Assembly: GCA_044350705.1 (NCBI GenBank) | Contig: JBILHA010000002.1 | Span: 30,542 to 94,541 of the forward strand | Length of the DNA: 64,000 nt | Direction of reading: 5' to 3' | From: Candidatus Kapaibacterium sp. | GTDB taxonomy: Bacteria; Patescibacteriota; Patescibacteriia; UBA9934 | Shown: piece by piece, positions 33,522 through 63,646 of the stretch | Layout of the letters: the number at the start of each line of letters is the position of its first letter | Position numbering within the stretch: the first letter of the stretch is position 1 | The notes under the pieces: model-generated | Databases searched by the model: none | The model's input: the letters and a program-made list of their open reading frames with translations, nothing else | What the model was told of the DNA's origin: nothing | Position numbers and translations under genes: made by a program

Positions 33522-36500
33522 TTAGAACTGTACAGACGAAGCACCACTGAAGTCGGTGATGTCGACGAGGTAAGCACCCCACCAGTCATCAGTCGTTCCA
33601 GTAGCTCCCGCTACGCCGTCATCCTTCCAGAGGAAAGAGGTTGGGAGGCGGAAGATGTCATCGGACGTACCGATGCCGGTGTTCGCCATAACGTTGGTAC
33701 CAAGGTATCCACGAACAACCGTAAGGTCATTGGTGCTAATGTTGGTTACAAGCATGCGTTCATCGGAAGCGGAAACGCCGTCGTCAGCAACGTCGAAGAT
33801 GATGATATCTCCAACGCTGAATGCAGCTCCGGAATCTACGGTGATTACCGTATCGGTTACTGCAATCGAGGTTTCAGCAGAAGCATCAGCAACTGCGTCG
33901 TAGTTCGTTGAAGCAGGATCGCTTACAATTTCGAACAATACGCTGTCGTCGGTAGATGCACCTGCTGCACTCATGTAGAGCGAGTAGGTCTTTGTGGTTC
34001 CTGCAGCAACTACTTCATCGGTTGGGAATGCTACACCAACAAATGCGATATCAGCTGCGGTACCGTCACATGCTACTACTTCGCTGGAAGCTACCTTGTG
34101 CAAGCTCCAGTTTGCAGAAGCCGTATCAAGAGCGGTCGAAAGGTTCGAGCGATCGAAAATATCGAAATCTGCACCAGTCTTTACATAGGTTCCTGGAGAC
34201 GCGGTATCACACGTGTTCCAATCAGCACCTCCTACATCGGAAGCGCTCATGCGGAACATGATGCGATCGATGACTACATCTTCACCTGCGGTTGCGGAAA
34301 CGTTGAAGCGAAGAACTTCAGGGCGTCCACCTGCAACACCCGTAGAAGGAGAAGAGGAAGAGCGAGCTACAGATGGGTAGGTTTCCTTCACGACGAAGGT
34401 AGGTACGCCATCGGTAGATTCAAGATCGTCACCAAGGTCAGCAACGGAAGCACCGTTTACTTCAGAACCCGAGCCAGAGCCCGTAGCCTTGAAGTAGGTG
34501 TTTCCTGCTCCGGAGGTGTAAAGACCCATACGTACCTTTTCGTTTGAGGTAGCAGAACCACCAGAAACGCGGTCAGTCGTAGGAACGTTTACGTATACCT
34601 CAACGTCGGTAGGTTCATCTACTGCTACTGGGATCGAAAGACCCGAGAAGCGAGCGATGTTTCCAGAGAGCGCTGCGGTAGGAGCAGTTCCGGTCATACC
34701 ATCCCATGCAAGAGAAACAACGGAAATGTTGTTTGCGTATGCAGCGGAGTTGGAAGAGCCCGTATCATCTTCAGCTTGTTCTTCAGAGAAGGACAAGGTG
34801 TTGAGGACGAAATCTTCGTTGGTAGCCGTAAAGCGGTAGGTTGCTACATGGCTGTTGGACGTGCCCGTGCGGAGGAAATCCGCATCTGGCATGTCTGCTG
34901 CAGCGGATGCTGCGAGAGAACCACTTGCTGCGATGGTCACAACGCGATCCACCGTTGTTGCGCTGCCGTTTACTGCGTCACCCGTTGCCGTTACATCGTC
35001 ACCATCTTCGTCTTCGGCGATCACATCAGAAGATGCATCAACGATATCGAATGCGAAATGACGGTTGGAGGTTTCGGATGGGTTTGCAAGGTTACACTTT
35101 ACCGTAAGGGTTGCAACTTCGGAAGCGTCGAGCATCCAGTCCATACTATCAAACGTGATCGTCTGACCGTTGGAAGAAGGAGACTCTGGGCCACCTACGA
35201 TTTCAGAACCGTGGTAAAGCGAGCAAGATTCAATGAAGTCATTGACGTCTGCGTTCGTTTCACCTCCGATCGTGAAGGTTGCATCACCATCGTCATCTCC
35301 GTATGCGGAGAGCACGATTTCACTTACCGTGATATCAGATGCGTCACCTGCCGTGAAGGTGAATCCTACAGCAGCATGGCTGTCGGTTCCCTGAACGGTC
35401 GTGGTATCAACTGGCGTAGAAGCCAAGCTGATTGCAAGAGAAGCTGCACGTGCGGTTTGGTTGAAACCTACAACGCCAGATGCTGGAACGATGTCGGTTA
35501 CCGTGTCACCGTTTGCATCCTCAATGTCGAGACCGGAAACGGTTACCTCGGCTAAGAAGATGGTTCCGGAACCAACCAAATCATCTACGTCTGCAACAAC
35601 TGCGAGATTGAGGGTTTCACCCGCTTCAATCGTGAAGTCATCGGTGAACGTAAGCGTTTCGTCAGCGTCATCGGTTCCCGTAAGTTCGAGAGATGCGCCA
35701 ACGGTGCGGCCACTGTCGGTATCTACCACCTTGATATCAGTCAAGGAAGGTACGGATCCCGTCGTGAAAAGACCATCAGTGTCATCATCTCCGCCGTTCT
35801 CTACTGCATCACGAGCGTCGCCATCAGCGTCGTCGTCAGAGTAAAGCTTTACCGCCATCGACTTCACATCTACCGTCTGTGCAGACGTGATGGAGAATTC
35901 GAGAAGCGTCTGGTCCTGTGCGTCGATCTGAATGTCGCCTACTGCAGGGCCGTTGAATGCAAGCGTTACATCGCCGCCTTGAACGACACTGTAGGAACAC
36001 TGCACGGACGACGTACATGCACTGTCATCGTATTCCTCTATGTTTGTTGCCATGCCGAATCCGTAGTCTCCACCGATCGCGAGAATGTCTACCGCGTTTT
36101 CAGCGTACACACGGATAACGTCGGACGACTTTCCACCAATATCAGCGGAAAGGGTGAAGACGTTATTATCACCTTCTTCAATGAAGAAAGGCTCGTCTGC
36201 AAGGCTACATACAACCTGGTCACGAGAGGTGTTTTCACACTCTGCGAGCCAGTCGGAACCATCCCAGAGGTTGAAATCGGAGTGATCTCCTGCATCCTCA
36301 ACTTCGAGGGTGATGAGCTCTACGTCAGCATCTTCAGTACCTGCGGACAATCGGAACTTCGCAATTTCTGCGTCTTGTTCACCGATTGCAGGGTCCTGGA
36401 TGCTTCCTGCAGCCTCAATCGTCAACGTTCCAGAGCTTGCTCCACCTACGGTGAATTCATCGCCTTCGATTGGGAAGCGACCAGAAACGTCACCCGATGC

Positions 36501-37610
36501 GGTTACCATATCTGCAGATTCGAGCTCGAATCCGAAGGTGGAAGCTGCATCTGCGAGGGTAGCAACCGTTGCCTTTACCGTAAGGGTTACGGAATCGCGA
36601 GCACCAAGCTCAACATCAAGAGAGTTGAAAGTTACTTCGCGGGTAGAAGAGTTGATCGAGCGAGCATCGGTCAAGCGAGTATCACCTTCGTAAAGGTACA
36701 CTGCGGAGAGCGTGCTTGCTGCGCCTGCTCCGGTAAGGGAGAGGGTAACGCCGTCAAGAACTGCTTCTTCGGAACCTGCTTCAACGTCGAAAGCGAATAC
36801 TTCAACGCCGTTTGCGCCCTTCGTAACCGTAGAACCAGCTGGCATCGAAGATGCCGCAGAGATTTCAACGTCTCCCATTGCGGAAGAGTCGTCATCGCTG
36901 GTTTCCGTCTGAGCAGCGTCTACAAGGGAGGTCATCTCGGAAGAGATTTCATCACCCATGGTCAAATCGCTGTCATCGATGTTTGCACCGTCCAAAACGA
37001 ACTTCGACATGAAGTTGTTTGCGGACATACCTGCGGAGGTAACCTCGCGCATTTCACCATCCCAAGAAAGGTAGGTGGTTCCTCCCATTTCATAGAGCGC
37101 ACCTTCGTATGCAGCTGCTTCCATGAGAGAAGTTCCCTCAGTGTAATCAGCGAAGAATACGTCTGGTACGTCTACGATACGCTTGTTCCAATCGGAACCA
37201 GCGAGATCTTCTGCGATGTCTGCGGTTTCAATCCAGTGAATCATGCCGTTGCGAGCAACTGCATATACATCAGCGATGGACTGCACCTTGATCCACCAAG
37301 AACCTGGGCGCATTACTACGTTACCACCGAGGGTGATATCGGAGAGTGCACTGTCAGAAATGGTAGATACGTCATTGAAGTTTGAGTACCAAGTGAAGTA
37401 CGTTGCTTCGTTAGGGAAAACGTAGCGCATACCGTCGTAACCGTAGTAGTAGACGGTAGAGAGCGACGTTCCCTTAATGAGATCGCCAGCAGAAGCTGCG
37501 CTCACCGATGCAGGGGAAACGAGAAGGCCTGCACCTACAGAGAAAGCGATGGTCGCTGCAGCTACTGCTGCAGAGAAAGCACGCTTACCTGTTTCAAGAA
37601 CATGTTGCAT
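33522..37610 (-). CDS. Giant acidic secreted protein (1362 aa), putative surface-layer/adhesin-like protein
   Basis: Start ATG 37610 (MQHVLETGKRAFSAAVAAATIAFSVGAGLLVSPASVSAASA, signal peptide); extremely D/E/T/S/G/A/V-rich; repeated beta-sandwich-like modules; ends ..SSVQF; good terminator downstream. Confidence 0.8.
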   Translation of the reverse strand: MQHVLETGKRAFSAAVAAATIAFSVGAGLLVSPASVSAASAGDLIKGTSLSTVYYYGYDGMRYVFPNEATYFTWYSNFNDVSTISDSALSDITLGGNVVMRPGSWWIKVQSIADVYAVARNGMIHWIETADIAEDLAGSDWNKRIVDVPDVFFADYTEGTSLMEAAAYEGALYEMGGTTYLSWDGEMREVTSAGMSANNFMSKFVLDGANIDDSDLTMGDEISSEMTSLVDAAQTETSDDDSSAMGDVEISAASSMPAGSTVTKGANGVEVFAFDVEAGSEEAVLDGVTLSLTGAGAASTLSAVYLYEGDTRLTDARSINSSTREVTFNSLDVELGARDSVTLTVKATVATLADAASTFGFELESADMVTASGDVSGRFPIEGDEFTVGGASSGTLTIEAAGSIQDPAIGEQDAEIAKFRLSAGTEDADVELITLEVEDAGDHSDFNLWDGSDWLAECENTSRDQVVCSLADEPFFIEEGDNNVFTLSADIGGKSSDVIRVYAENAVDILAIGGDYGFGMATNIEEYDDSACTSSVQCSYSVVQGGDVTLAFNGPAVGDIQIDAQDQTLLEFSITSAQTVDVKSMAVKLYSDDDADGDARDAVENGGDDDTDGLFTTGSVPSLTDIKVVDTDSGRTVGASLELTGTDDADETLTFTDDFTIEAGETLNLAVVADVDDLVGSGTIFLAEVTVSGLDIEDANGDTVTDIVPASGVVGFNQTARAASLAISLASTPVDTTTVQGTDSHAAVGFTFTAGDASDITVSEIVLSAYGDDDGDATFTIGGETNADVNDFIESCSLYHGSEIVGGPESPSSNGQTITFDSMDWMLDASEVATLTVKCNLANPSETSNRHFAFDIVDASSDVIAEDEDGDDVTATGDAVNGSATTVDRVVTIAASGSLAASAAADMPDADFLRTGTSNSHVATYRFTATNEDFVLNTLSFSEEQAEDDTGSSNSAAYANNISVVSLAWDGMTGTAPTAALSGNIARFSGLSIPVAVDEPTDVEVYVNVPTTDRVSGGSATSNEKVRMGLYTSGAGNTYFKATGSGSGSEVNGASVADLGDDLESTDGVPTFVVKETYPSVARSSSSPSTGVAGGRPEVLRFNVSATAGEDVVIDRIMFRMSASDVGGADWNTCDTASPGTYVKTGADFDIFDRSNLSTALDTASANWSLHKVASSEVVACDGTAADIAFVGVAFPTDEVVAAGTTKTYSLYMSAAGASTDDSVLFEIVSDPASTNYDAVADASAETSIAVTDTVITVDSGAAFSVGDIIIFDVADDGVSASDERMLVTNISTNDLTVVRGYLGTNVMANTGIGTSDDIFRLPTSFLWKDDGVAGATGTTDDWWGAYLVDITDFSGASSVQF

Positions 37611-37782
37611 AAGCAAAATAAATGTGACTCTTTTTACCCCAAGAGCCGGGGGTGATGTGAAGAAGGACAAATCCGGCCCTGCGGCCTCGACCTTGCTTGG
37701 TTTTGTCAGGGATGCGAACGCCATCCCTTCGGAATCCACCACGCTTGCGCATGATGCCTTCTGAAGGAAGGGCGAGGTCCGC

Positions 37783-42450: not shown

Positions 42451-43980
42451 TTATTCTTCATCGTTCTTTACGCGAGCGACCACCCATCCACCTAATACCC
42501 ATACATAGGGCGCCATGGTACGCACTTCAAAGTACGTTGCCAGGAAAGCATTTACGGAAAACGCCACAAGTACTGCCGCAGTAGCTCCCGCAAGCGCACG
42601 GACATCTTTATCTTCATGTTCTTGCGCCGTCCGTACGCACAGCGCGAAAAGTCCCACATAAAACCATAAAAAGGTTGCGAGTCCGAGGGTACCCATCTCT
42701 CCCCACAAGCTCATCCAATTGTTGTCGATGTATCCTCCTGTTCCATACACGCCAAACGGCAAGCTCAATCGATCGTATACGAGCGTGTTCCCTAATGCTG
42801 CCGCAGCTCCTCCTCCATATTGTCCTGGCCCTACGCCAAAAACCGGCGCTGAAGGAACAACGGTTCTCAGGGTTTCTGCAATCCAATATAAACGACCAAG
42901 ACCGACATATTCCCCTCTCCAGCGTTCGTATGAAAAAGCTTCAAAGAAACGTTCGGCTACGGTTTGCTCAGGCGTGTCGATCAGGGTATGCACCAAGAAA
43001 TTGCTCCCTACGACGTACGTCACGATAATCAGCGGGGCAAGCATGGCACCTGCAAGCACACGCTTATCTTTTTTAAGGAAGATCGCCAGGAAGAGAAAAC
43101 CGAGGAGAAATCCAAACCATGCAGAGCGGGAATAGGTGAGCACCAGGACCGGGATGCCGAGCGCGAGCACTGCTGCGCCGATTATTTTTGTTCGGCTTCC
43201 GAGACGCTTGTCATACAAGAACGCAATAATCAAGAGAAAGACAAACGCAAGAAAAATACCCAGCTGATCATAGCGCCCCATGGTGCCAAAGACCCGCTGC
43301 CCAGGGTCCCAAAATTGCGTCGTTCCTTCGGTGAGCTGAATACTGCCGAGCGTCTTTCGTTCGGAAGGAAGTAAGAAGGTATCCAGCGATCCATCGGTGA
43401 CCGCCTGAAGGCCTCCTAACGTAATCTGAACCCCCGCTACCACCGTCAGGGTAACCAGCAGCATTTTCATCCATTGTTTTGACGGCGCGAGCTGCACGAC
43501 GACAAAAAAGAGCAGCATGAATCGTAACAGCTGTCGTGCGCCAAGTATTGCCACCGTGGGATCTACGACGTTTACCACTATCGACGCGAGCATGGCGATC
43601 AAAAAGAAAACGAATGGAACATCGAGCGCAGAGCGCTTCCATCTTTTCTCCTGCCAAAACATCCGGAGCATCACCGAAGCGACGAGGAGATACACCACTA
43701 ACTCGGAACCATACCGTGCGAGCAGATAGACATCGTCAGGAATCCACTTGAGGAGGAATGGTTCAAAGGGAAGATATACGAGCAGGGCCAATAAGAGCAT
43801 CTGTGGCTTCCACCATGCAAGGGCAAGAATGCCTACGCTCATCACTAACGCTACGGTGATTGCCGGAGAGGTAAAGAGTGACAGAAAAAGTGCTCCACCT
43901 ACAATGATAAACAAGACCAGGAGCGCAATACGCGCGCGTGTTTCTGCTAAGAGCACATGCACATGAAGATGTTGCCGCAT
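42451..43980 (-). CDS. O-antigen ligase/polymerase family membrane protein (Wzy/WaaL-like)
   Basis: Start ATG 43980 (MRQHLHVHVLL...); ~12 TM; O-antigen-ligase-domain signature loop TYSRSAWFGFLLGFLFL after a periplasmic loop. The track ORF is extended upstream without support. Confidence 0.7.
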   Translation of the reverse strand: MRQHLHVHVLLAETRARIALLVLFIIVGGALFLSLFTSPAITVALVMSVGILALAWWKPQMLLLALLVYLPFEPFLLKWIPDDVYLLARYGSELVVYLLVASVMLRMFWQEKRWKRSALDVPFVFFLIAMLASIVVNVVDPTVAILGARQLLRFMLLFFVVVQLAPSKQWMKMLLVTLTVVAGVQITLGGLQAVTDGSLDTFLLPSERKTLGSIQLTEGTTQFWDPGQRVFGTMGRYDQLGIFLAFVFLLIIAFLYDKRLGSRTKIIGAAVLALGIPVLVLTYSRSAWFGFLLGFLFLAIFLKKDKRVLAGAMLAPLIIVTYVVGSNFLVHTLIDTPEQTVAERFFEAFSYERWRGEYVGLGRLYWIAETLRTVVPSAPVFGVGPGQYGGGAAAALGNTLVYDRLSLPFGVYGTGGYIDNNWMSLWGEMGTLGLATFLWFYVGLFALCVRTAQEHEDKDVRALAGATAAVLVAFSVNAFLATYFEVRTMAPYVWVLGGWVVARVKNDEE

Positions 43981-44101
43981 GAGAGAAGTATAGCAAGACG
44001 CAAAACGCGGCCCCAGGCACGCGCTTCTCACCTTCACCACCGAAGCGGAGAAAGGAGAAACGCGGCCCAGAGCCGCTGATCGAGCAGGGGCGGAATCCCT
44101 G

Positions 44102-45664
44102 CTAGTAGGCGTACGCCCAGACGTCATTGGCGTCTGCGCACGCGACGTATCCGGTGCAGGACGCGGGATTTTCCACGATCCGGCTTCCGGCAGCCACGCC
44201 GACGCCGTCGGTGAGGCTGCCACAGCCATACTGCACGGTCGCGAAAGATGAGGAACGATTCTCAACGGCGATATAGCCGCCGCCGCCCACCGAGATCGTT
44301 GATGTGCAGAGCGGGAGCTCGATCCAGGGATCCGGCGTACCGGTGTCGCCCGTGTCGCCCGCCTCGCAGTCCGCCTCGTCGGCGGTGCCGTCGCAGTCGT
44401 TGTCGACCGTATCGGCGCACACCTCGAGCTCGCCGGGGTTCACCGCCGCGACACCGTCATCGCAGTCGGTGTTGTCCTCGACGTAGCCCTCGATCCCGAT
44501 GCCTTCACACATGGGGGTACCGGGGTCCGACTCGTCGCCGTAGCCGTCGCCGTCGTTGTCCACGTAGACGTTCACGAAGTCGGCTGCGTCGGTGTCGGTG
44601 ACACCGTTGCAGTCGTTGTCGGTTCCGTCGCCGCAGACCTCGGTTGCGCCGGGGTTGACGAGCGCGTCGGTGTCGTTGCACTCCTCGCACGCGCCGTACC
44701 CGTCGCCGTCGTTGTCGTCGGCGCCGACCAACCCGTCGCAATTCATGTCGTCCGTGGCGCTGCAGTCCTCCATGGCGCCGGGGTTGACGAGCGCGTCGGT
44801 GTCGTCGCAGTCACCGTCGTGCGCGACGTAGCCGGTGGGCGTGCTGCAGGCCGAGACGGTCGTGGCGGGATCGCCGTAACCGTCGCCGTCGGTGTCGGCG
44901 TACCAGGTCTGCTTGTCGACGGCATCGCCGTCGGTGTCGCCGTTGCAGTCGTTGTCGATCCCGTCGCAGACCTCGGTGGCGTCGGGGTTGATGAGCATGT
45001 CGGAGTCGTTGCACTCCTCGCAGCCCGCAAAGCCGTCGCCGTCGCCGTCCTCGTTGCTCGTGAAGCCGTCGCAGTTCATGTCCTGCTCGTCTTCACAGGT
45101 TTCGGGGGCGCCGGGGTAGATGGTCGCGTCGGCATCGTTGCAGTCGGTGTAGTCGGGCACATAGCCGACCGGCTGTTCGCAGGCGGCGGTGGCCCAGGTG
45201 GGCTCCCCGTAGCCGTCGCCGTCGGTGTCGGCGTACCAGGTCTGCTTGTCGACGGCATCGCCGTCGGTGTCGCCGTTGCAGTCGTTGTCGATCCCGTCGC
45301 AGACCTCGGTGTTGCCGGGGTAGGCGCTCGAATCGGCATCATCGCAGTCCTCGCACTCGGCCACGCCGTCCTCGTCGTCGTCCACGCCGGTGATGAAACC
45401 GTCGCAGTCGATGTCGACGAGGTCGGTGCACTCCTCGATGGCATCCGGGTTGATCTCCGAGTTCCCGTCGTCGCAGTCGTCACAGGCCGAGAAGCCGTCA
45501 CCGTCGGCGTCGATCTCCTCGCACGGATTTCCGGTCTCGCCGGAGTCGTCCGTGACGATGCCGGTGTCATCCGGCATCGGCTCAAGCTCGCCCTTGATGT
45601 GCAGCGGGGGGAAACACGCCGCGAACAACACGAGGGCCATCAGGCCCATCTCGTTCGTCTTCAT
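44102..45664 (-). CDS. Secreted Cys-rich repeat protein with 'putative metal-binding motif' (MopE-like, Myxococcota-type) repeats
   Basis: Start ATG 45664 (MKTNEMGLMALVLFAACF, signal) preceded by GGAGG; ~9 repeats of C..C.DC(D/N)D.D..(I/V)NPGA.E.CDG.DNDC(N/D)G; strikingly GC-rich, GC3-dominated codons; contains ~120-bp near-identical internal direct repeats. Confidence 0.8.
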   Translation of the reverse strand: MKTNEMGLMALVLFAACFPPLHIKGELEPMPDDTGIVTDDSGETGNPCEEIDADGDGFSACDDCDDGNSEINPDAIEECTDLVDIDCDGFITGVDDDEDGVAECEDCDDADSSAYPGNTEVCDGIDNDCNGDTDGDAVDKQTWYADTDGDGYGEPTWATAACEQPVGYVPDYTDCNDADATIYPGAPETCEDEQDMNCDGFTSNEDGDGDGFAGCEECNDSDMLINPDATEVCDGIDNDCNGDTDGDAVDKQTWYADTDGDGYGDPATTVSACSTPTGYVAHDGDCDDTDALVNPGAMEDCSATDDMNCDGLVGADDNDGDGYGACEECNDTDALVNPGATEVCGDGTDNDCNGVTDTDAADFVNVYVDNDGDGYGDESDPGTPMCEGIGIEGYVEDNTDCDDGVAAVNPGELEVCADTVDNDCDGTADEADCEAGDTGDTGTPDPWIELPLCTSTISVGGGGYIAVENRSSSFATVQYGCGSLTDGVGVAAGSRIVENPASCTGYVACADANDVWAYAY

Positions 45665-45895
45665 TTCTTTTGCCTCCTGGGATTGAACCCGTAGCAAGGT
45701 TAGCAAAAAAATGCGAAAAAGTAAAGGAAAAAGGTGCCTGCAGAGCACTTCTTTTCCTCCAAAAAGTTTTTAAAACGAACAACCGCCCCTACAGTCCCGA
45801 AGGACCGCAGAGGCGGAAGATTCACCGGCGCGAGGCGCCGGCTACAGTAGACACGTGACCCCGTCTACTAGGGGGGGTGGCGCTGACGAGGCGCC

Positions 45896-47038
45896 CTACT
45901 CGACCTGGCAGACCGGCTCGTCGGCGGTGGAGCGCTTGTTGCACTCCCCCGCCGGTGGGGTGTCGTCCGTGGTGGAGTAGTTGAGGGTGGCCGTGTCCCC
46001 TCCGATGACGATCGAGCTGTAGTGCTCGGACCCGCCGGTGGCGATGTAGGAGCCATCGCTGCACTGCCCGAAGACCCACAGGAGGTCGCCGGACTGAGCG
46101 TTGATGCTCCCGGACAGGGTGTTGCTCCCGCCGGTGGCAATGTAGTCGGGGCTGGAGAGCCCCGGCCAGTTGCCGACCCAGTCGCTCTGGTTGAAGATCC
46201 AGAGCTCCCAGGTCTCGCCGGAGTCGGAGCACCACGAGCTGTCCTTCGTCACCTCGACGGTGAGGCTGCCCGAGCCGCTGTCGCTGCCCGAGTGCGTGCC
46301 GGTGTCCGTGTCGGAGGAGGTGTCCTCGTCCACGTCGGAGGTGCCGTCGTTGTCCGAGTCGGGGTTCTCGTCCGGGTCCAGGCCGAAGCCCTGGCAGCCG
46401 GGGGCGAAGACCCCCTCCTCATCCTTCATCAGGTAGAGGCCCAACCGGTTCCCGTCGAGGGGGTTGGGGCAGACCGCGGAGTCGTGGCCGCTCAGAGCGG
46501 TCAATTCCCCCCACTCGTCCAGCCCCCCGTCGGTGCTCAGATCGCACTCGCCGGGGGAGAAGGTCCGGGTGTTGCCGAAGAAGATGTCCACGGCGTCGGG
46601 GAAGAAGAACCGCACCTTCTCGGACCGGACGCCGGACGGCCAGTCGGACTGGTCGTCGTAGCGCTCGATCGGCAGGTTCTCGGAGCACCAGTCGTACTCA
46701 CCCTCGCTTCCCCCGAGGCCGTAGCCCACGAGGAAGGTGTTGGTGAGGCTGGCCACGAGCCCCTGGTCGAGGTAGACGAAGTCGCCGTAGGGCACCACCT
46801 TGTCGGCGGTGTCGATGATGCCGTCGTTGTCGAGGTCGGAGGTCGAGGAGCTGGGACCGGTGGTGCCCGAGTCGTCGCCGGAGTCGTCACCCCCGGCGCC
46901 GGTGTCGTCGCTGGGGTTGCTGGTGTCGTCGCCGTTGTTGTTGGCGTCGACGTTGCCATCGCTCTTCTTCTTGAACTCTCCGCCGCAAGCGACGAGGGAG
47001 GACAGGCCGAGGAGGGCGAGGAGGGAGAAGGCGTTCAT
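45896..47038 (-). CDS. Hypothetical secreted lipoprotein (lipobox LVAC), high-GC
   Basis: MNAFSLLALLGLSSLVACGG: signal peptidase II lipobox; D/S/G/T-rich acidic low-complexity N-terminal region then a Cys-containing domain; SD GGAG 8 nt upstream. Confidence 0.6.
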   Translation of the reverse strand: MNAFSLLALLGLSSLVACGGEFKKKSDGNVDANNNGDDTSNPSDDTGAGGDDSGDDSGTTGPSSSTSDLDNDGIIDTADKVVPYGDFVYLDQGLVASLTNTFLVGYGLGGSEGEYDWCSENLPIERYDDQSDWPSGVRSEKVRFFFPDAVDIFFGNTRTFSPGECDLSTDGGLDEWGELTALSGHDSAVCPNPLDGNRLGLYLMKDEEGVFAPGCQGFGLDPDENPDSDNDGTSDVDEDTSSDTDTGTHSGSDSGSGSLTVEVTKDSSWCSDSGETWELWIFNQSDWVGNWPGLSSPDYIATGGSNTLSGSINAQSGDLLWVFGQCSDGSYIATGGSEHYSSIVIGGDTATLNYSTTDDTPPAGECNKRSTADEPVCQVE

Positions 47039-47464
47039 GGCGTCTCCGGTACCTAGGGGAAACCCATTTGGGGTCCTAGGATTTTCTTTCTTTCGTTTCA
47101 GTTGTCAGAGGACTACCGGGACCATCCCGGCCGCTTGGGACCTGATTGATGTCTCAGGCCCCGAGGGCCCTGTTTGGGTCCGGCGGTGTTCGCGTCTCTT
47201 GTGGAGGAACAAGAGCCACGAACATCGCAGGAACAAATCTATTACTTGTTTTAAGATTCACTGTGATGCGTACGTAACCAGGAACCGGATTACTGATTTT
47301 CGTAACGGAGTATCGTACCATTTTTTTCCGTTTTTGTCAATGAAAGAAGGTGCGGATATCGAAGAATTTCACGGATGTTCGGATCTTCTTTTTCCCGGAT
47401 AAAGTGGGAGCAATCTTGCGATTCCTCACACTATGTTCTTGGAAACTTTTACAAACGTCTGGTA

Positions 47465-47501
47465 GGGAGAGTGGCGAAGCCCGAAGGCTTGCCACTCTCC
47501 C
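47465..47501 (-). terminator. Long GC-rich hairpin downstream of the beta-barrel-like gene
   Basis: gggagagtggcgaagcc cgaa ggcttgccactctccc: ~17-bp stem with one bulge; weak U-tract, so terminator function is tentative. Confidence 0.4.
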
Positions 47502-47547
47502 CCCACGATCGGAGAAACCCGAGAGTTCCTCCGATTTGTACCCGCTC

Positions 47548-48486
47548 CTAGAACGCGTAGATCGAGATCTCCGCGCCAGCCCGGAAGCCCAGCCCCGTCG
47601 TCACGTCGTTGCCGTTGGAGATGCGGTAAGGCATCGCCCCGGCCTCGAGGTTGACGGAAAGATGCTTCGCCGGCACGAGCCGCAGCTCAGCCCCCAGAGA
47701 CGCACCGTCCCCCTTGTAGGTGACGATGTAGTCGGGGAGGAGATCCACTTCCCAGTGGCTCAGCGTGACCGCCGGCCCCAGGTGCATGTTGTTCCCTATG
47801 CTGTAGATCGCCGAGAGGCCGATTTCGGCCACCCCGGTCCCCTTGCTTCCAGCGGCGATACCGCCGGAGCCGCTGTACCCCCACTTGCCTTTGGTCTCCA
47901 GGTCGGTGAGGCCGAGCTGGAGACCGAAGGTGGTGATGGCCGTGGGGCCGGCAGCTTCGGGGTTGGAGTAGGCCAACACCGTCATGGGCACCCCGAGGGT
48001 GAACTTCATGCCCGTGGCGGAATCGCGCTCCACCGACAGCTCGTCGCTGCTGGGCAGCTGCTGTGGTTCCGGCTTGGGGGCCGGGGCGGGCGGCGGGGGG
48101 GCGCCCCGCCGGCACTGGGCCGGGTCGCCCCGGAGGGCGGCCGCGATATCGATCTTCGGGGCGAACTCGCTGCAACCGTACTCGCCTTCGAGGTAGCGCG
48201 AGTAGGCCACGGTATCGGCCCCCCACTCGTCTCGACACACTTCGTCGCTCGCCTCCTGGCACACGAGCCAGCGGAACTGGCGCGAGTGCCGGCTCGGCGT
48301 CGACGAAGTGCGCTGCTGGCCGGCGGGGAGGTCGGCGACCTCCAGCTCCAGCTGAATGAGGCGCTCCTCGAGGCACTGCGCCCGCTGAGTGGAGTCGGTG
48401 AGACCGGTGCACGAGGCGGGGGGGTCCGCCGCGAGGGCGGCGGGGGTGAGACCGAGGACGGCGAAAAGGGTGAGGAACGACAGCAT
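47548..48486 (-). CDS. Hypothetical secreted protein, outer-membrane beta-barrel-like (C-terminal ...ISIYAF), high-GC
   Basis: Start ATG 48486 (MLSFLTLFAVLGLTPAALAA, signal peptide); Pro-rich linker; C-terminal ~170 aa of alternating hydrophobic residues ending in aromatic-x-Phe, as in OMP beta-barrels. Confidence 0.5.
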   Translation of the reverse strand: MLSFLTLFAVLGLTPAALAADPPASCTGLTDSTQRAQCLEERLIQLELEVADLPAGQQRTSSTPSRHSRQFRWLVCQEASDEVCRDEWGADTVAYSRYLEGEYGCSEFAPKIDIAAALRGDPAQCRRGAPPPPAPAPKPEPQQLPSSDELSVERDSATGMKFTLGVPMTVLAYSNPEAAGPTAITTFGLQLGLTDLETKGKWGYSGSGGIAAGSKGTGVAEIGLSAIYSIGNNMHLGPAVTLSHWEVDLLPDYIVTYKGDGASLGAELRLVPAKHLSVNLEAGAMPYRISNGNDVTTGLGFRAGAEISIYAF

Positions 48487-48720
48487 CAGAGCTTCCTTTC
48501 CCGGCCTACGCCGGGGAATGAGATTCACTTCTTGTTGGGTTTTTGAAGGATGCGGGCCGAGCCCGCATTGGGCTCGGAATCCCGCTTTTGAGGCGGTTTT
48601 CCTAGGGCGAGATATCAGCGCATGCAGTGGAGGAGAATGCACGTGCGACCTCCCGCCCTAGGAAAACCTCTCTCAGCGGGACAAACCATCGTACCAAAAA
48701 AATGCAAAAAAGTCAATGTT

Positions 48721-50149: not shown

Positions 50150-51265
50150 TTAGTATACCAGCTCTTCCCACGTTCCCAGGGTTACGCGTATATCCTTCAC
50201 CTCTTCGTTTCGAGACACGCGCAACGTTACTTGTTGTCCCGGCGCATATGTTGCCAAAATATCCGCAATGGTCATTGTGGAGGTGATGCGAATTTCATCA
50301 ATGGCAATAATAATATCCCCATCAGTGAGCCCGGCACGATCTGCGGGGCCATCCGTGAGTACTCCGCTTCGCTCTCCCGTCGGCGCAAAGATGAGCGCAC
50401 CCTCTTGATATTCCTGGGTGACCTCGGGAGACAGCGATGAAGGAAGCGAGAGATCGACTACCGTCGCGCCCAATGCCGCATGCTCAACGGTCGATCCGCG
50501 CAAGACTTGTCGAACAAACGGACGAAGCGCCTGTGCGGGGAGTATCATCCCCTCTTCATTCACAAATCCAAACAACCGCGCTTGGTTCGTGAGCACCGGA
50601 ATCCCCGGAAGCAGCGGACGTGCGGGAGACCAGACTGCACGAGGCTCTTCTGCGGGCACGATGACCGACTCCCCTTCTACTCCCCTTCTCAAAACAGAAA
50701 CCGTATTCACTTCTGCGAGCGCTCCTATCCCAAACACTGTTCCCCCGGGAAGCACTTCATCACTTTGTGCAAGCGCAAGAGGCGTCCATCCTTGGGCGTT
50801 TTGTACGCGCACCGCAACTGCATCGGTTTGCGTATCTTCAACCACGCGATCGAGCAGAAATACTTCCCCATCGTATACCACCGAGAAGCCAGCGTATCCT
50901 TCGTCAGTCGCATATCTTGCAAGCTGTGTGCGGGTCGTTAGTATCCATCCATCCGCACTTACCACGATGCCTTCTCCATGAATGTAGTCTTCTCCCCAGA
51001 GCACCGCCCCGCCGTTCGTTTGCGATGTTTTTTCATCTACAAAATAAACGCCCGCATTTACCATCGTGTCTTGAATGACCCCAAGGGATTCTTCAAGCGA
51101 CGTTGGAGATGAGCGTTGTGAAGATGCGAATGCCGCAAAACGACGATCATCAAGCAGCGTCGCTGCATAGCGTTCAAGAGAGGTGCTTACCAGTACCGCG
51201 GAGGCCGTCCCTGCAAGTGCTGCAGCTATGAGTGCGAGAGTAAGAAGAGGAAGGTGCTTTTTCAT
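50150..51265 (-). CDS. HtrA/DegP-like protein with PDZ domain, catalytic triad apparently degenerate
   Basis: Signal peptide; trypsin-fold-like region where the expected TNAHVV and GNSGGPL motifs read TTRTQL and LLPGIPVL; clear C-terminal PDZ (GVLTDGPADRAGLTDGDIIIAIDEIRITS...). Confidence 0.55.
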   Translation of the reverse strand: MKKHLPLLTLALIAAALAGTASAVLVSTSLERYAATLLDDRRFAAFASSQRSSPTSLEESLGVIQDTMVNAGVYFVDEKTSQTNGGAVLWGEDYIHGEGIVVSADGWILTTRTQLARYATDEGYAGFSVVYDGEVFLLDRVVEDTQTDAVAVRVQNAQGWTPLALAQSDEVLPGGTVFGIGALAEVNTVSVLRRGVEGESVIVPAEEPRAVWSPARPLLPGIPVLTNQARLFGFVNEEGMILPAQALRPFVRQVLRGSTVEHAALGATVVDLSLPSSLSPEVTQEYQEGALIFAPTGERSGVLTDGPADRAGLTDGDIIIAIDEIRITSTMTIADILATYAPGQQVTLRVSRNEEVKDIRVTLGTWEELVY

Positions 51266-53936: not shown

Positions 53937-53964
53937 AACTTCCTACATCTGTAGGAAGTTTTTT
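53937..53964. terminator. Bidirectional hairpin terminator shared by smpB (+) and tmRNA (-)
   Basis: aaaaaacttcctaca tc tgtaggaagtttttt: 9-11-bp stem with A/T runs on both sides; abuts the tmRNA CCA end. Confidence 0.75.
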
Positions 53965-54378
53965 GGTGGACCTGACGGGAATTGAACCCGTATCCGAGGA
54001 ACGTTCGCCAAAACTCTTTCTTCCAAGCTCATTCGCGTTTAGAGGGTTTACGTCTTTTTCGGTCAAGAAACGCGACGAACAACGAAACCGACGATGACAC
54101 GGCAAGGGTCCCTTATGCAGTGCGTCATCCCTGCAAAGGCAAGCGAGAAGGGTTATGACATGACTACTTTACGCACTCGCAGCGTAAAGGTCATGGGTGG
54201 CGGCGTTATTACGCGGCGACCGGAACAAAGGAAGGCGTGCGGAGCGCAGAAGCGACGACAGCCTTCACTTTTGAAAATACGTTTGCATGTACTTTCTGAA
54301 GCGTGTGATAACGCGGGACGCTTCGCCCGCGGCTTGAGAGGGATTGGGAATGATCTTCGTCGAAAGCCTAACAGGCCC
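53964..54378 (-). ncRNA. ssrA: tmRNA (SsrA transfer-messenger RNA), ~415 nt
   Basis: 3' end on the minus strand reads GGGUUCAAUUCCCGUCAGGUCCACCA (T-arm, acceptor, CCA). The 5' end GGGCCUGUUAGGCUUUCGACGAAG pairs with it over 7 bp including a G3-U70 wobble. Conserved UUCGACG box. In-frame tag ORF from resume codon GCA: GCA AAC GUA ... GCC GCG UAA UAA gives ANVFSKVKAVVASALRTPSFVPVAA with a double stop. Convergent with smpB. Confidence 0.85.
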
Positions 54379-54473: not shown

Positions 54474-54606
54474 CACTCCTAGCCAGGAACAAACTTAGCA
54501 GCAAATCTGGTCTTGATTCTCTTCTCAATTCTTTTTCAATCTCACCGTACCGATGTGGTACGCCTCGGCCAAGCCTCGAAATCTCCTTGCAACTGAACGA
54601 ACTTAG
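54474..54606 (+). repeat. ~132-bp direct repeat, copy 1
   Basis: ctcctagccaggaacaaacttagcagcaaatctggtcttgattctcttctcaattctttttcaatctcaccgtaccgatgtggtacgcctcggccaagcctcgaaatctccttgcaactgaacgaact; near-identical to 54743-54876. Confidence 0.85.
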
Positions 54607-54742: not shown

Positions 54743-54876
54743 CACTCCTCGCCAGGAACAAACTTAGCAGCAAATCTGGTCTTGATTCTCTTCTCGATTC
54801 TTTTTTTTAATCTCACCGTATCGATGTGGTACACCTCGGCCAAGCCTCGAAATCTCCTTGCAACTGAACGAACTGA
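54743..54876 (+). repeat. ~132-bp direct repeat, copy 2
   Basis: ctcctcgccaggaacaaacttagcagcaaatctggtcttgattctcttctcgattcttttttttaatctcaccgtatcgatgtggtacacctcggccaagcctcgaaatctccttgcaactgaacgaact; differs from copy 1 at a handful of positions. Confidence 0.85.
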
Positions 54877-56285: not shown

Positions 56286-56316
56286 CCCCGTATGTTCTGC
56301 ATACGGGGTTTTGTTT
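56286..56316 (+). terminator. Rho-independent terminator of the infC-rpmI-rplT operon
   Basis: ccccgtatg ttctg catacgggg ttttgtttt: 9-bp stem followed by a T-run. Confidence 0.8.
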
Positions 56317-56436
56317 TGACTTTTTTGCTTTTTTCTGCTAAAATACCGGGTCCGTTTGAGAGCTCGTTGAGTTCTCTTTCGGCCATCAAGTTCGATCCTT
56401 TCACCCACCGCCGGAGATCCCGGCAAAGGAGCCCTC

Positions 56437-57435
56437 GTGGCCGCGAACCCCATCAAGCCACTCGTTGTGGCCCTCCTCGCTCGCATCCCGGGCGCACTCC
56501 AGATCGCCGCGGACCTGGCGTCCCTCAAGGACGAGCAGATCCTGACCGACGAGACGGCCGCGACCTGGAAGAGCCTGCAGAATGAGGCCGAGGCTATCCA
56601 GATGGAAGCCGAAAGCCTCGAGCAGGACGGCTTCCGGAAGCCGACCCTCGACCCCCTCCCCTCTCCGCCGGAAGACGGCAAAGAGGTTCCGGACAAGGTC
56701 GTCTTCTTCAAGACGGGCGTCGGTACGGTGAAGAGCAACCTGGACAAGCTCCAAGAAGCCCTCACCACCTTCGAGGCCTCCCTCGTCGACCCGGCTCCCC
56801 CGCCGCCCCCGCCGCCGCCCCCCGCGGACCCGGGGCCCAAGCAGCCCCCGCCGCCCCCGGGCGGACGGCGCCCGCGGCCGCCGCACCCCACCGCCGCCGC
56901 CCAGCCCCCGAAGAAGGGGTGGCAAGGCTGGGTGGCCGGCGGTATCGCGTTTCTCCTGTTCCTCACCTTCATCCTCTGGGCCCTGTGGCCCGAGGAGGAG
57001 AAGGTGGTGGCGGTGACCCCGCCGCCGGTCGAGGAGCCCGCCGCCCCGGCGAAGGCGAAGGTGGAGGCCCCCAAGCCGAAGCCCGCTCCGGTGGCGGTTC
57101 CGTCGCCGGCCCCGACCCCCTACGGCGAGATGCCCCGCGCGTGCGCGGATGCACTCGACAACGTGGGCGACATGGACGGCGACGGTATCGCCGAGACCTA
57201 CACCATGGTGCCCATCGGCAACGGTGCGGCCCTGTACGTGTCGGGTGTGGAGGTTAAGGACGGCGCGTGCACCATCTCCAACGGCGAGTTCGCCGCGCTC
57301 CACACGGAGTTCGGTGAGAGGCTGAAGGGGATCGCGCTGAAGGGCCGGTTCACCCCCGTGGTGACCCTGAGCGGCGGCCGCAAGGTCCGCTGCAACAAGG
57401 GCCCCGGGGGATTCGAGAACTGCTTCGAGGGGTAG
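56437..57435 (+). CDS. Hypothetical Pro-rich single-pass membrane protein (high-GC)
   Basis: GTG start 7 nt after AAGGAG; poly-Pro tracts (PPPPPPPPPAD, PPPPPGG), one TM (GWVAGGIAFLLFLTFILWALW), C-terminal Cys-containing domain; GC3-dominated codons unlike neighbouring rplT. Confidence 0.5.
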   Translation: MAANPIKPLVVALLARIPGALQIAADLASLKDEQILTDETAATWKSLQNEAEAIQMEAESLEQDGFRKPTLDPLPSPPEDGKEVPDKVVFFKTGVGTVKSNLDKLQEALTTFEASLVDPAPPPPPPPPPADPGPKQPPPPPGGRRPRPPHPTAAAQPPKKGWQGWVAGGIAFLLFLTFILWALWPEEEKVVAVTPPPVEEPAAPAKAKVEAPKPKPAPVAVPSPAPTPYGEMPRACADALDNVGDMDGDGIAETYTMVPIGNGAALYVSGVEVKDGACTISNGEFAALHTEFGERLKGIALKGRFTPVVTLSGGRKVRCNKGPGGFENCFEG

Positions 57436-57660
57436 AAGCAGAGCAGGGGGCAACGTCCCGCCGACAAGTACTAGAAGAGCAATCTTCAGGAACCTGTCGG
57501 CGGGCCACATCTACGCTCGTCGACAAGTACCGAAGAGATTCGCTCTTCTGGGAACGTCGGCGGGCGTTTTGCGTTTCTTTTATTCTTTCACACCCCCTCC
57601 CCTTTCTCTTCTTGCAGAGTTTTTTTCTCCCTGTTATAGTATTCACGCTCCAAATGGCGA

Positions 57661-57775: not shown

Positions 57776-58118
57776 TAGCTAAGCCATATTTACGAGTTCC
57801 AACCGCCTGTTTTTATATATAACGGTCAGCGAGGATTTCGTGAGGCATTTGGCAATGAAACCGCGGTTTTTTCGTTGAATGTTGGGGGCTCAAGCACTTC
57901 TCAGTATTCTCTTCTTGATTTTTTCCTAAAAAATGCTATACTACTTTGTTGCTTGAAGATGCGGGTGACATCGAAAAAGCGACAAGCGTGTCCCCGTTCG
58001 TATGCTCCGTTAGTTTGGCGTCTGGTATTTCTACAATATCGGTTGACGCCAGGCAAACGGAGCGTATGAAAGGCGCTTCCGCGACATCCTGTCGCGCCTC
58101 CAACTCCACGGAGCTCTC

Positions 58119-58376
58119 ATGACTCTGCTCACCCTCTTCGTCCTCGGCGGTCTCACCTCCGCCTTCGCCAACCCGGCAGAGGAGAACCAGAACCGCACGG
58201 ATCACGTCGAAGCGGCCCAGGTGGCCCTCTGGGCCGCTCAGGCTGCTGCCTCCTCCGGCGAGGAGGCAGCAGCCGATCCGGCCGCGGCCTCCCGTGAGGC
58301 CCAAAAAGCTGCGGAGGCCGCCCAGGCGGCCCTGTGGGCCGCCCAGGCGGCCCTGTGGGCTACGTGCAGCTACTGA
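58119..58376 (+). CDS. Small secreted Ala-rich protein with AAQAALWA repeats (high-GC)
   Basis: 85 aa; signal peptide MTLLTLFVLGGLTSAFA; AQVALWAAQAAA...AAQAALWAAQAALWA repeats; GGAG-containing leader; two hairpin terminators downstream. Confidence 0.45.
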   Translation: MTLLTLFVLGGLTSAFANPAEENQNRTDHVEAAQVALWAAQAAASSGEEAAADPAAASREAQKAAEAAQAALWAAQAALWATCSY

Positions 58377-62723: not shown

Positions 62724-63470
62724 CTAGACGTAGCGCGGGACGATCTCCCACGCGATGGCGGAGGGAACGGGGGCGAAACCGCGGGCCTTGTCGATCCCGA
62801 TCGCCTGGCGGACGAGGATTCCGTCCGGCGGGATTGGGAGGGCCGCAGAGTTCGCGTTGAAGGGCGCGGGATCCTTGCCCGAGACCTCCACCACGAGACC
62901 GGTGGTGCTCATGCCCTTGCGAGCGCTGAACACCGCCCTGCCCTGCAGGAACCAGACCTCCCCCATGACCCTCGGCATGTGAGGGATGGCAAAGGGAAGG
63001 TGAGCATTGACATGGGCCGCCGCGCCGAAGAGCAGCGTACCGCCATGCACCTGCTGGAAGTGATTCATGGAGAAGTGCGTTGGGGGAGTTCCCCGGCTGG
63101 GGACTTCCGCCACGACCTCCGCCAGGATCTCCTCCTCACTCATCCCCGATCCTGCCGCAAGGGTAGCCGGAGCCAGAGGCAGCGTCTCGCTGATCGCTTC
63201 CCCATCGAAGATGACGGGGATCGAAATTCTCTCCCCCTTGTAGTCGACGATAAGCCGGACAAGGATCCCATCCGGCTCCTTCGACTCCTCGGTGGCAGGA
63301 CGAGGCCGCTCGCGGATGATCGGGGGCCGAGCTCCGCTCGGCGTAATCGTGCGACCGATGCCCGCCGGGGGCGGGGGGGGCGGCGAGGGAGCGAAGGCCT
63401 CCCTCGCCGGGGGCTCTTTGAGCCCCCAGAGCACGTTCCAGGCACGTGCGAGCCTCTCGAAGAAGCCCAT
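62724..63470 (-). CDS. Hypothetical protein (high-GC), Pro-rich N-terminal region
   Basis: ATG at 63470 (MGFFERLARAWNVLWGLKEPP...PSPPPPPPAG...); GC3-rich codons; no family recognised. The track ORF begins further upstream. Confidence 0.45.
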   Translation of the reverse strand: MGFFERLARAWNVLWGLKEPPAREAFAPSPPPPPPAGIGRTITPSGARPPIIRERPRPATEESKEPDGILVRLIVDYKGERISIPVIFDGEAISETLPLAPATLAAGSGMSEEEILAEVVAEVPSRGTPPTHFSMNHFQQVHGGTLLFGAAAHVNAHLPFAIPHMPRVMGEVWFLQGRAVFSARKGMSTTGLVVEVSGKDPAPFNANSAALPIPPDGILVRQAIGIDKARGFAPVPSAIAWEIVPRYV

Positions 63471-63646
63471 ACTCCTCCTCTTGCGCAGGAATTGCGCAGG
63501 TATGGCGCGCGGAGTATAGTCGTTTTTTGGGTTTTTTACAAGCGTACCCCCCTTTTTTTCTCCACACTCCCAAACGCAACAAGCCGCCGGCATCCCGAGA
63601 GGACGCCAGCGGCGAACGGTAGAGCGCTTGTCGAGGTTTTGTCTCG

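Follow-up and report, generated by a model that had tools for sequence, protein, structure and literature searches.

Why should a handful of genes in a bacterial chromosome of otherwise ordinary composition be strongly G+C-rich, and what keeps them so? The question is raised by a stretch of 64,000 nucleotides (contig JBILHA010000002.1, positions 30,542 to 94,541; the whole stretch is called the window here) in which G+C content (GC) switches abruptly at 44.1–48.65 kb, over a cassette of three genes, and again in smaller recurrent patches. A first-pass annotation made from the sequence alone had described these switches, and GC profiles together with the GC of third codon positions in each gene (GC3) bear them out. 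We find that the patches consist of genes native to the chromosome of an Uhrbacteria-like Patescibacteria bacterium, and that the 44.1–48.65 kb block is a conserved, vertically inherited and hypervariable cassette of predicted envelope proteins beside the surface-glycan genes Wzy_C and GT4. Its high GC looks inherited and actively maintained, rather than the mark of foreign DNA or of an assembly error.

Composition and contiguity of the GC-rich patches

Mean GC in the window is 51.7%, and outside the patches the 1-kb profile stays within 0.41–0.55, against peaks of 0.58–0.68 at 44.0–48.6 kb, 0.62–0.70 at 56.0–57.5 kb and 0.64 at 62.5–64.0 kb. In 200-bp steps, GC rises from about 0.50 to 0.64–0.74 at 44.0–45.6, 45.8–47.0, 47.5–48.6, 56.4–57.5, 58.1–58.4 and 62.6–64.0 kb. 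At this resolution the 44.1–48.65 kb block separates into three pieces with dips to 0.49 (45.6–45.8 kb) and 0.41 (47.2–47.4 kb) between them, and the spacers within the cassette have a GC of 0.41–0.55. The peaks match the positions of open reading frames (ORFs), and the switches in composition fall at start and stop codons. Per gene, GC3 is 0.35–0.57 in about 50 backbone genes (about 0.48) versus 0.78–0.96 in the patch genes, which are listed here with the neighboring backbone anchor.

42451–43980, minus strand: backbone anchor Wzy_C, an O-antigen ligase/polymerase-like membrane protein (Pfam), GC3 0.54, followed by two GT4 glycosyltransferase genes
44102–45664, minus strand: third cassette gene, 520 aa, PF11617 MopE-type protein, GC3 0.90
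45896–47038, minus strand: second cassette gene, predicted 380-aa lipoprotein with lipobox LVAC, GC3 0.96
47548–48489, minus strand: first cassette gene, 312–313 aa in translation, GC3 0.89
56437–57435, plus strand: poly-Pro protein with a single transmembrane (TM) segment, 332 aa, GC3 0.91
58119–58376, plus strand: Ala-rich signal-peptide protein, 85 aa, GC3 0.80
62724–63470, minus strand: 248-aa protein starting MGFFERLARAW, GC3 0.82 (0.78–0.82 over the alternative extents 62724–63593 and 62724–63470); called at 3983–4729 of contig L091
63647–64000, minus strand: 3′ part of a 254-aa paralog that runs past the window end, GC3 0.80; L091 3042–3806

The excess is mainly synonymous and sits at codon position 3: GC at the first and second positions (GC1 and GC2) of the patch genes is near backbone values, and their third positions hold C at 0.56, G at 0.32, T at 0.08 and A at 0.04, compared with about 0.25 each in the backbone. 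Codons ending in C gain most among the four-fold codons, and amino-acid usage also drifts toward G/A/P-rich codons. The bias is present from the start, with a GC3 of 0.84–0.96 within the first 25 codons of each patch gene except the over-extended ORF 62724–63593, whose true start is probably M42. The 60 nt 5′ of each patch gene have a GC of 0.40–0.63, and the flanking backbone genes have no GC3 gradient toward the patches. Because the C/G preferences that the backbone shows box by box level out in the patch genes, and because these use GTG, CTG, CGG and GAG, codons that rpmI and rplT avoid, the bias is toward GC in general and not toward particular codons.

Abrupt changes of composition are also what an assembly or binning chimera joining a high-GC to a mid-GC organism would produce, but we consider that explanation negligible. 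The window sequence is found base for base in JGI 3300042340, JGI 3300042359, Logan SRR27421204, 3300059473 and ENA ERZ27272086, and these assemblies, from five samples and four sources, agree across all junctions. The matching contigs include a 99.5-kb JGI contig, a 532-kb contig of 3300059473 and the ENA contig ERZ27272086; a 4.4-kb contig of another JGI sample crosses the junction of the lipoprotein, MopE and Wzy_C genes, and Logan contigs span 45.3–49.0 kb and 54.8–64.0 kb, extending past the window, so that all patch junctions are covered jointly. Since each junction recurs in separately made assemblies of four samples or more, the sequence is not a chimera, as the first-pass annotation had argued; the coincidence of the switches with start and stop codons, and the same pattern in dozens of unrelated metagenome-assembled genomes (MAGs) and metagenomes, speak against one as well.

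The cassette proteins and their inheritance

The host is identified by the nearest relatives of its backbone pyruvate kinase (pyk), which are Patescibacteria and Candidatus Uhrbacteria MAGs at 81% to about 45% identity, as an ultra-small, Uhrbacteria-like bacterium of the Patescibacteria (candidate phyla radiation, CPR). Several related MAG records of the third-party annotation (TPA) type (L004, L006, L009, L010, L012 and L021) are labeled 'uncultured Gammaproteobacteria bacterium'; pyk and synteny place them in Patescibacteria, and the labels are probably wrong.

The cassette consists of three minus-strand genes adjoining Wzy_C and two GT4 genes, which in the window have ordinary composition. 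Four features that had been picked out from these patches are all seen in the sequence: LVAC as a lipobox, a protein ending in ...ISIYAF, a single-TM protein with poly-Pro, and a small signal-peptide protein rich in Ala; lipobox and signal-peptide calls were read heuristically from the translations and not made with LipoP or SignalP. Neither lgt nor lspA lies within the 64-kb window. The proposal that every patch gene encodes an exported protein fails for the paralogs at 62724–64000, which have no signal peptide.

In the first cassette protein, a signal peptide is followed by a short coiled coil, a PPPPAPAPKPEP poly-Pro linker and a Gly- and beta-rich C-terminal half ending in ISIYAF. Pfam has no match for it, and among 5.8e9 clustered (word-indexed) and 1.84e9 representative proteins (exhaustive HMMER) the only match was the protein itself; an AlphaFold2 (AF2) model made without an alignment is uninformative, with a predicted local distance difference test score (pLDDT) of 36.9. 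A positional analogue with the same architecture lies at 456–1505 of L088 (GC3 0.91). The suggestion that this strict orphan is a beta-barrel outer-membrane protein (OMP) finds no support: in its C-terminus, ...AEISIYAF, positions −5 and −7, on the same face as F/Y, are Ser and Glu, unlike the conserved C-terminal beta-signal of OMPs, and the L088 analogue ends in ...GTPRREVVSE, without an aromatic C-terminus. CPR bacteria are not known to have lipopolysaccharide or BamA.

The N-terminus of the second cassette lipoprotein reads MNAFSLLALLGLSSLVAC and then GG, and the rest comprises acidic low-complexity linkers and two Cys-containing domains. Just two distant homologs were found (P0123 at 42% and P0124 at 34% identity), both encoded by genes with a GC3 of 0.91–0.92 in the same cassette context in Patescibacteria; AF2 on the three-sequence alignment was again uninformative (pLDDT 38.2). 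At 2340–3278 of L092, a 312-aa lipoprotein joins MopE motifs to a C-terminal domain sharing 52% identity with that of the window's second cassette lipoprotein, a case of domain shuffling.

The third cassette protein, with the N-terminus MKTNEMGLMALVLFAAC followed by F and the lipobox LFAAC, is probably a lipoprotein too. The metal-binding motif assigned to it at first sight is confirmed by a PF11617 match of 193.3 bits (cut-off 27; E 5.3e-58) in 7 stretches, although both Pfam and a reading of the sequence give seven copies instead of about nine. The seven Cys-rich motifs make up three 111-aa super-repeats, after which comes a C-terminal Cys-containing domain; a conserved Cys/Asp pattern and DxDxDG-like segments are visible, and metal binding is putative. 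Its 7097 homologs occur in Myxococcota, Patescibacteria and others, the top matches mixing Myxococcota with Patescibacteria, in both of which the family is common. The near-identical internal direct repeats previously noticed in the gene are three 333-bp units with near-identical 97-nt cores at 44871–44967 and 45204–45300, and the repeat-number variation expected of them does occur: a strain variant (P0002 on L087) has lost one 333-bp unit in a clean deletion bounded by the 97-nt cores, shortening the protein from 520 to 409 aa, and over 3.8 kb differs from the window in nothing else (100% identity). The 33 apparent single-nucleotide polymorphisms relative to L087 were the misaligned edge of this deletion and yield no information on polymorphism.

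Wzy_C is the conserved neighbor of the cassette, with synteny in L021, L085, L087, L088 and L092–L171. In L021, two MopE lipoprotein genes (GC3 0.82–0.84) are followed by Wzy_C, GT4, GT4 and pyk; in L088 all three cassette genes recur (GC3 0.91, 0.92 and 0.81), and Wzy_C comes next. The MopE gene reaches a GC3 of 0.84 in L085 versus 0.25–0.42 in its backbone, and 0.81 in L084 versus 0.46 in neighboring genes; L086, a high-GC genome (0.6–0.8), has three MopE genes at 0.90–0.94. Several relatives carry 2–5 tandem MopE paralogs, and a 1401-aa signal-peptide protein of L085 has ordinary composition. In a metagenome scan seeded with the backbone Wzy_C, which returned 80 loci, 50 of them distinct, the Wzy_C-adjacent gene exceeded its backbone in GC3 in 92% of the 50 distinct loci (Wilcoxon p = 7e-12), and where backbone GC3 was below 0.65 the means were 0.47 for the backbone and 0.74 for the Wzy_C-adjacent gene. 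A logit regression of cassette on backbone GC3 gave a slope of 1.09 ± 0.28 and an intercept of 1.37; with a slope of about 1, the cassette tracks the bias of its own genome plus a roughly constant GC offset, and not a fixed donor composition. Backbone GC3 itself spans 0.24–0.92 within the clade defined by Wzy_C (L126, L129, L130 and L133 versus L094, L118 and L165), a very wide spread given that each Wzy_C is about 50% identical to that of the window.

The proteins diverge together with this backbone, only faster. Cassette proteins could not be aligned in 84% of locus pairs, those that could had a mean identity of 41% versus 55% for Wzy_C, and cassette identity exceeded Wzy_C identity in 18 of 448 pairs, by slight margins. 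This gives no signal of exchange, and for the first protein, which has no homolog, there is no sampled donor. At four-fold sites, backbone orthologs are 27–46% identical in 8 of 9 informative pairs (57% for rplT versus L011). Because synonymous sites are thus saturated, a neutral import predating the divergence should have lost its signature.

These results bear directly on horizontal acquisition from high-GC donors, which we think unlikely. The donors would be Myxococcota-like diderms or uniformly high-GC members of the Patescibacteria clade, and the genes would have come in either long ago, ameliorating very slowly since, or again and again at one surface locus prone to integration, as happens at O-antigen and capsule loci. 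The composition and dinucleotide signature of the patch genes are indeed like those of high-GC genomes, PF11617 is abundant in Myxococcota, clade members with a backbone GC3 of 0.86–0.92 could have been donors, some scattered outliers in relatives resemble ordinary enzymes (PyrF-like, L006), and the tRNA-Asp gene lies between two patches. However, the cassette and the rplT/tRNA-Asp patch keep their synteny between lineages whose synonymous sites are saturated, GC3 of the cassette rises with that of the recipient backbone at a slope of about 1 and not 0, and only very rarely are cassette proteins more alike than the Wzy_C next to them. The first protein has no homolog in 1.84e9 representatives, the lipoprotein has just the two in the same Patescibacteria context, and promoters, leaders and terminators are of native type and conserved. 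Of the features of a genomic island, atypical composition is found, but mobility signatures, a patchy distribution and a closer similarity to donors than to relatives are not, although the MopE repeat family, by itself, fits a Myxococcota ancestry as well as a native one: no integrase or other mobility genes were found among the called genes, and neither att-like repeats nor a repeat of the tRNA-Asp end. An island at tRNA-Asp was therefore rejected, the order rplT, patch gene, tRNA-Asp being kept in L004 and L011. Of the two origins that the first-pass annotation had offered, lineage-specific, compositionally distinct genes fit much better than acquisition from a high-GC diderm lineage, since some 50 distinct relatives have the cassette in synteny and with raised GC3. 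Homologs that bear this signature are thus commonplace among close relatives of the host, which is what the annotation itself had named as refuting an import.

The class of affected genes is not simply the secretome, as had been proposed. Pooled over loci, lipoboxes are strongly enriched among GC3 outliers (odds ratio (OR) 110, p 2.5e-33), but this general rule was abandoned because it disappears once the Wzy_C cassette is excluded: of the 22 outliers that remain among 343 genes, 0 have a lipobox, and export signals are found in 9 of 22 outliers versus 116 of 301 other genes (OR 1.1, p = 0.82). Many exported or membrane proteins of the backbone have ordinary GC3, for example 30490–32541, 33522–37742 and 50150–51265. 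The affected genes are better described as lineage-restricted, fast-evolving and independently transcribed, often rich in proline, acidic residues or Cys, and the surface cassette is their most conserved example. Among the scattered outliers, L006 4499–5425 (minus strand) is a PyrF-like (orotidine-5′-phosphate decarboxylase) ORF with a GC3 of 0.82 versus 0.50 in its backbone; this cytoplasmic enzyme, and a minority of such outliers, may be genuine transfers. A small conserved protein with an NWRQA motif and no signal peptide lies directly downstream of pyk in four Uhrbacteria MAGs (L015 11456–11755, L017 11504–12001, L018 11491–11931 and L023 7983–8396), where its genes have a GC3 of 0.78–0.92 versus 0.39–0.55 in the backbones.

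Promoters, leaders and the probable force behind the high GC

Each cassette gene is, as far as signals can be read, its own transcription unit with a predicted promoter close to the extended −10 consensus, a leader, a Shine-Dalgarno (SD) sequence and a terminator. The leaders are 70–270 nt long, the SD sequences strong, the terminators hairpins, and the promoters lie within the AT-normal spacers. A promoter scan found seven strong sigma-70-type extended −10 promoters in the 64 kb, all intergenic; four of the seven drive patch genes, one infC-rpmI-rplT and one a GT4 gene. The elements of the patch genes are as follows.

48716–48688, minus strand: promoter of the first cassette gene, TTGACT-17-TGgTACGAT (promoter scan)
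48490–48716, minus strand: promoter and leader of the first cassette gene, leader about 190 nt
48575–48686, minus strand: conserved leader hairpin of about 100 nt, also at L092 889–1000, L157 1980–2085 and L114 3860–3955
47340–47312, minus strand: promoter of the lipoprotein gene, TTGACA-17-TGgTACGAT
47039–47340, minus strand: promoter and leader of the lipoprotein gene, leader about 270 nt (267 nt), fold z = −4.7
47195–47230, minus strand: lipoprotein-leader hairpin, CUCUUGU-UCCUCCA-CAAGAG, with the pyrimidine loop motif of the first leader
45783–45816, minus strand: intrinsic terminator of the lipoprotein gene, 15-bp stem with 10 GC pairs and a T tail
45665–45760, minus strand: promoter-like element of the MopE gene, TTTACT...TGcTAACCT, short leader, SD AGGAGG
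44062–44076, minus strand: terminator-like hairpin 3′ of the MopE gene
56316–56344, plus strand: promoter of the poly-Pro gene, TTGACT-17-TGcTAAAAT, 93-nt leader
57915–57942, plus strand: promoter of the Ala-rich gene, 177-nt leader

The first leader is the most structured, with a fold z of −8.9 and a 102-nt hairpin that begins at the predicted 5′ end and carries the loop UCUCCUCCA. A covariance model of this hairpin has matches in L157 and L114, in each case just ahead of a high-GC3 gene; across the four lineages, 16 of its 31 pairs have compensatory changes and the loop is invariant. No leader matches Rfam at E ≤ 1. The hairpin may be a new cis-regulatory or stabilizing leader; its loop looks anti-SD-like and could instead sequester the ribosome-binding site. 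A count of the TCCTCCA motif (20 versus 8.6 expected) was discarded as evidence because the copies are mostly reverse-complemented SDs. The MopE promoter-like element and two other patch promoters share the spacer TTTTTCGCATTTTTTTG. Relative to L092, whose Wzy_C is 75% identical, the spacers are 74–79% identical (79% for 47101–47514) while the cassette coding sequences (CDSs) cannot be aligned as DNA, and in particular the promoter and leader DNA of the first gene is kept although its CDS is unalignable.

A GC3 that is confined to ORFs, stable across the clade, able to survive saturation and tracking the genome implies a gene-specific, GC-favoring force that maintains it. We take this force to be selection at the level of the mRNA or the coding sequence, with a probability of roughly 55% on the sequence evidence, and favor selection because of the ORF-sharp edges, the AT-normal and conserved spacers, the strong promoters and the stabilizer-like leaders. 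Selection would favor GC-rich, highly structured transcripts that are long-lived and efficiently used. They would be well matched to envelope proteins made in abundance by cells that have very few ribosomes, and the protein sequences would meanwhile diversify fast, partly by gain and loss of repeats.

Classical translational selection, under which the patch genes would be the cell's most expressed and G/C-ending codons optimal, is a very unlikely alternative to such transcript-level selection. The strong promoters and SD sequences would be expected of highly expressed genes, a preference for codons ending in C and for AAG is seen in rpmI and rplT as well, which have a GC3 of 0.62–0.74, and C-ending codons gain most in the four-fold boxes. 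But the ribosomal-protein genes are far less biased than the patch genes, and rplT, rpmI and L31 are at or near backbone GC3 in relatives; the codons that rpmI and rplT avoid are used in the patches; and six or more unrelated genes, tiny orphans included, share the bias. Highly expressed proteins, moreover, normally evolve slowly, and those of the patch genes evolve fastest.

GC-biased gene conversion (gBGC) at recombination hot spots in hypervariable surface genes, with GC itself of no advantage, is the strongest alternative to selection, though we think it less likely. Recombination between strains, internal repeats or paralogs would form heteroduplexes whose repair drives AT to GC at weakly constrained sites. 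This would explain why the shift favors GC generally and is not codon-specific, why amino-acid usage drifts along, and why the log-odds shift is constant per genome, as a gBGC coefficient predicts; the MopE gene recombines between its own repeats, the one place where recombination is seen here, and relatives carry tandem MopE paralogs. Against it, the size of the shift (+0.3 to +0.6 GC3) far exceeds the shifts commonly reported for bacterial gBGC. The edges are gene-sharp, with cassette spacers at 0.41–0.55 and no gradient in the flanks, whereas conversion tracts should ignore start codons; this point is qualified by the constraint that the spacers themselves are under. The most extreme genes (the lipoprotein at 0.96 and the orphan at 0.89) exist as single copies, lack repeats and have no silent counterparts in the window, and two samples of the population are identical save for the repeat deletion and so give no direct sign of allelic exchange. 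In support of gBGC, GC3 is raised in the recombining genes of 11 of 14 bacterial groups, mostly via non-optimal codons (PMC4450053), and the gene-conversion cassettes of Borrelia vls reach 49% GC in a 28.6% genome (PMC11499132).

Several observations weigh against selection on the transcript as the explanation, or limit it. The selective agent is itself an inference. GC3 of the window's ribosomal-protein genes is only moderately raised, so that classical translational selection cannot be the whole story. The dinucleotide distance (delta*) between patch genes and backbone is 169, against noise of 51 ± 19, as expected of foreign DNA, and the patch genes are closer to Myxococcota (79–121) and to high-GC members of the clade (101) than to their own backbone; the backbone is equally far from the high-GC members of its own clade, which is why delta* reflects GC content and not ancestry. 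Because Myxococcota are rich in MopE-repeat proteins, this family may have been transferred in the distant past. The surveyed loci are phylogenetically non-independent, with heuristic ORF and signal-peptide calls. High-GC3 TM genes follow infC-rpmI-rplT and precede tRNA-Asp in the window, L004 and L011, but these positional 'orthologs' of the poly-Pro gene are little alike (32% over 81 aa in L004, no similarity detected in L011). The choice between C- and G-ending codons in four-fold boxes, tried as a discriminator between host and Myxococcota, failed, since sampled Myxococcota MAGs share the CTC/GCC preferences; the CTG-dominant usage expected of Myxococcus did not apply to them.

Smaller patches, known systems and significance

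In the public 532-kb assembly, an antisense 369-aa ORF (56401–57510, minus strand) is annotated instead of the 332-aa poly-Pro gene, which makes automated annotation of patch genes unreliable; GC-rich patches hold long spurious ORFs in other frames. The Ala-rich gene contains a perfect 21-nt tandem duplication (58316–58357, encoding AAQAALW), a potential site of length variation. The 248-aa and 254-aa paralogs have an N-terminal amphipathic helix followed by poly-Pro. Past the right window end, L091 1–800 forms a further patch between ftsA and ftsZ (GC 0.65–0.70), in which the called frame looks wrong (GC1 0.86). Elsewhere, direct copies of about 130 bp at 54474–54603 and 54743–54874, 95% identical and 269 bp apart, sit between the tmRNA gene (53964–54378, minus strand) and the infC promoter, with a 33-aa ORF annotated in one copy.

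A compositionally deviant surface-antigen locus is known as a kind; what is unusual here is the size of the effect, its synonymous nature, the breadth of the clade and the conserved leaders. The nearest precedent is the vlsE/vls locus of Borrelia, where the GC of the lipoprotein cassettes has been attributed to selective maintenance, and where an array of promoterless silent cassettes with G-runs and a coding-strand GC skew of 0.52 serves segmental gene conversion (PMC11499132). Like vls, the window has a surface-lipoprotein gene of locally high G+C. Unlike vls, its cassette has a coding-strand skew of −0.09 to 0.00, a separate predicted promoter for every gene and an excess located at third codon positions, and tblastn of the patch proteins against the 64-kb window found only the genes themselves and no silent copies. 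The mycobacterial PE_PGRS genes are also repetitive, fast-evolving, surface-associated and GC-richer than their genome, and vary by inter-repeat recombination; their GC-richness comes largely from the first two positions of Gly-Ala codons, and the genome around them is itself high in GC, whereas in the patch genes GC1 and GC2 stay close to backbone values and the effect is synonymous. The O-antigen and capsule loci of enterobacteria, which are AT-rich, exchanged between lineages and encode enzymes, and whose deviant composition persists, share with the cassette a surface locus of deviant composition beside Wzy-type and glycosyltransferase genes. Here, by contrast, the deviant genes are GC-rich, encode structural proteins and co-diverge with their flanks, and Wzy and GT4 are ordinary.

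The MopE/PF11617 proteins of Methylococcus and Myxococcota resemble the window protein in being Cys- and Asp-rich, with a repeated motif, and it too is predicted to be exported. It differs in being predicted to be lipoprotein-anchored, in lying beside Wzy_C in a Patescibacteria genome, and in its 111-aa super-repeats with a copy number that varies between samples; Myxococcota MopE genes have a GC3 equal to that of their neighbors, and the window gene is an outlier. The leaders recall S-layer and ompA mRNAs, in which a strong promoter is combined with a long stabilizing 5′ leader bearing a stem-loop at its 5′ end: here, too, a strong predicted promoter, a long leader and a 5′ stem-loop precede an envelope-protein gene, and stabilization is putative. 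No earlier description of GC-rich gene classes in Patescibacteria was found in the literature, the coverage of which was incomplete, so that this is weak evidence of novelty.

Outliers in composition are commonly taken for foreign DNA and may be thrown out by binning tools; here genes that differ from their backbone by 0.3–0.6 in GC3 nevertheless appear native, syntenic and maintained throughout a clade with saturated synonymous sites. Selection and biased gene conversion are usually argued from GC differences of a few percent, and the far larger effect in these genes makes them a natural test system. The patch genes probably encode cell-surface proteins through which CPR bacteria contact hosts or their environment, one of them polymorphic in repeat number between samples. 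A bolder proposal, which we offer tentatively and would not expect to hold in full, is that Uhrbacteria-like Patescibacteria keep a second, selectively maintained 'codon dialect' of G/C-ending codons for dispersed, fast-evolving envelope and host-interaction genes, with strong promoters and conserved structured leaders, one of them bearing an anti-SD-like loop, as a post-transcriptional program of mRNA longevity and gated translation. Such a program would suit cells with only tens of ribosomes, and, if it exists, synonymous composition would be a functional, heritable mark of a bacterial gene class.

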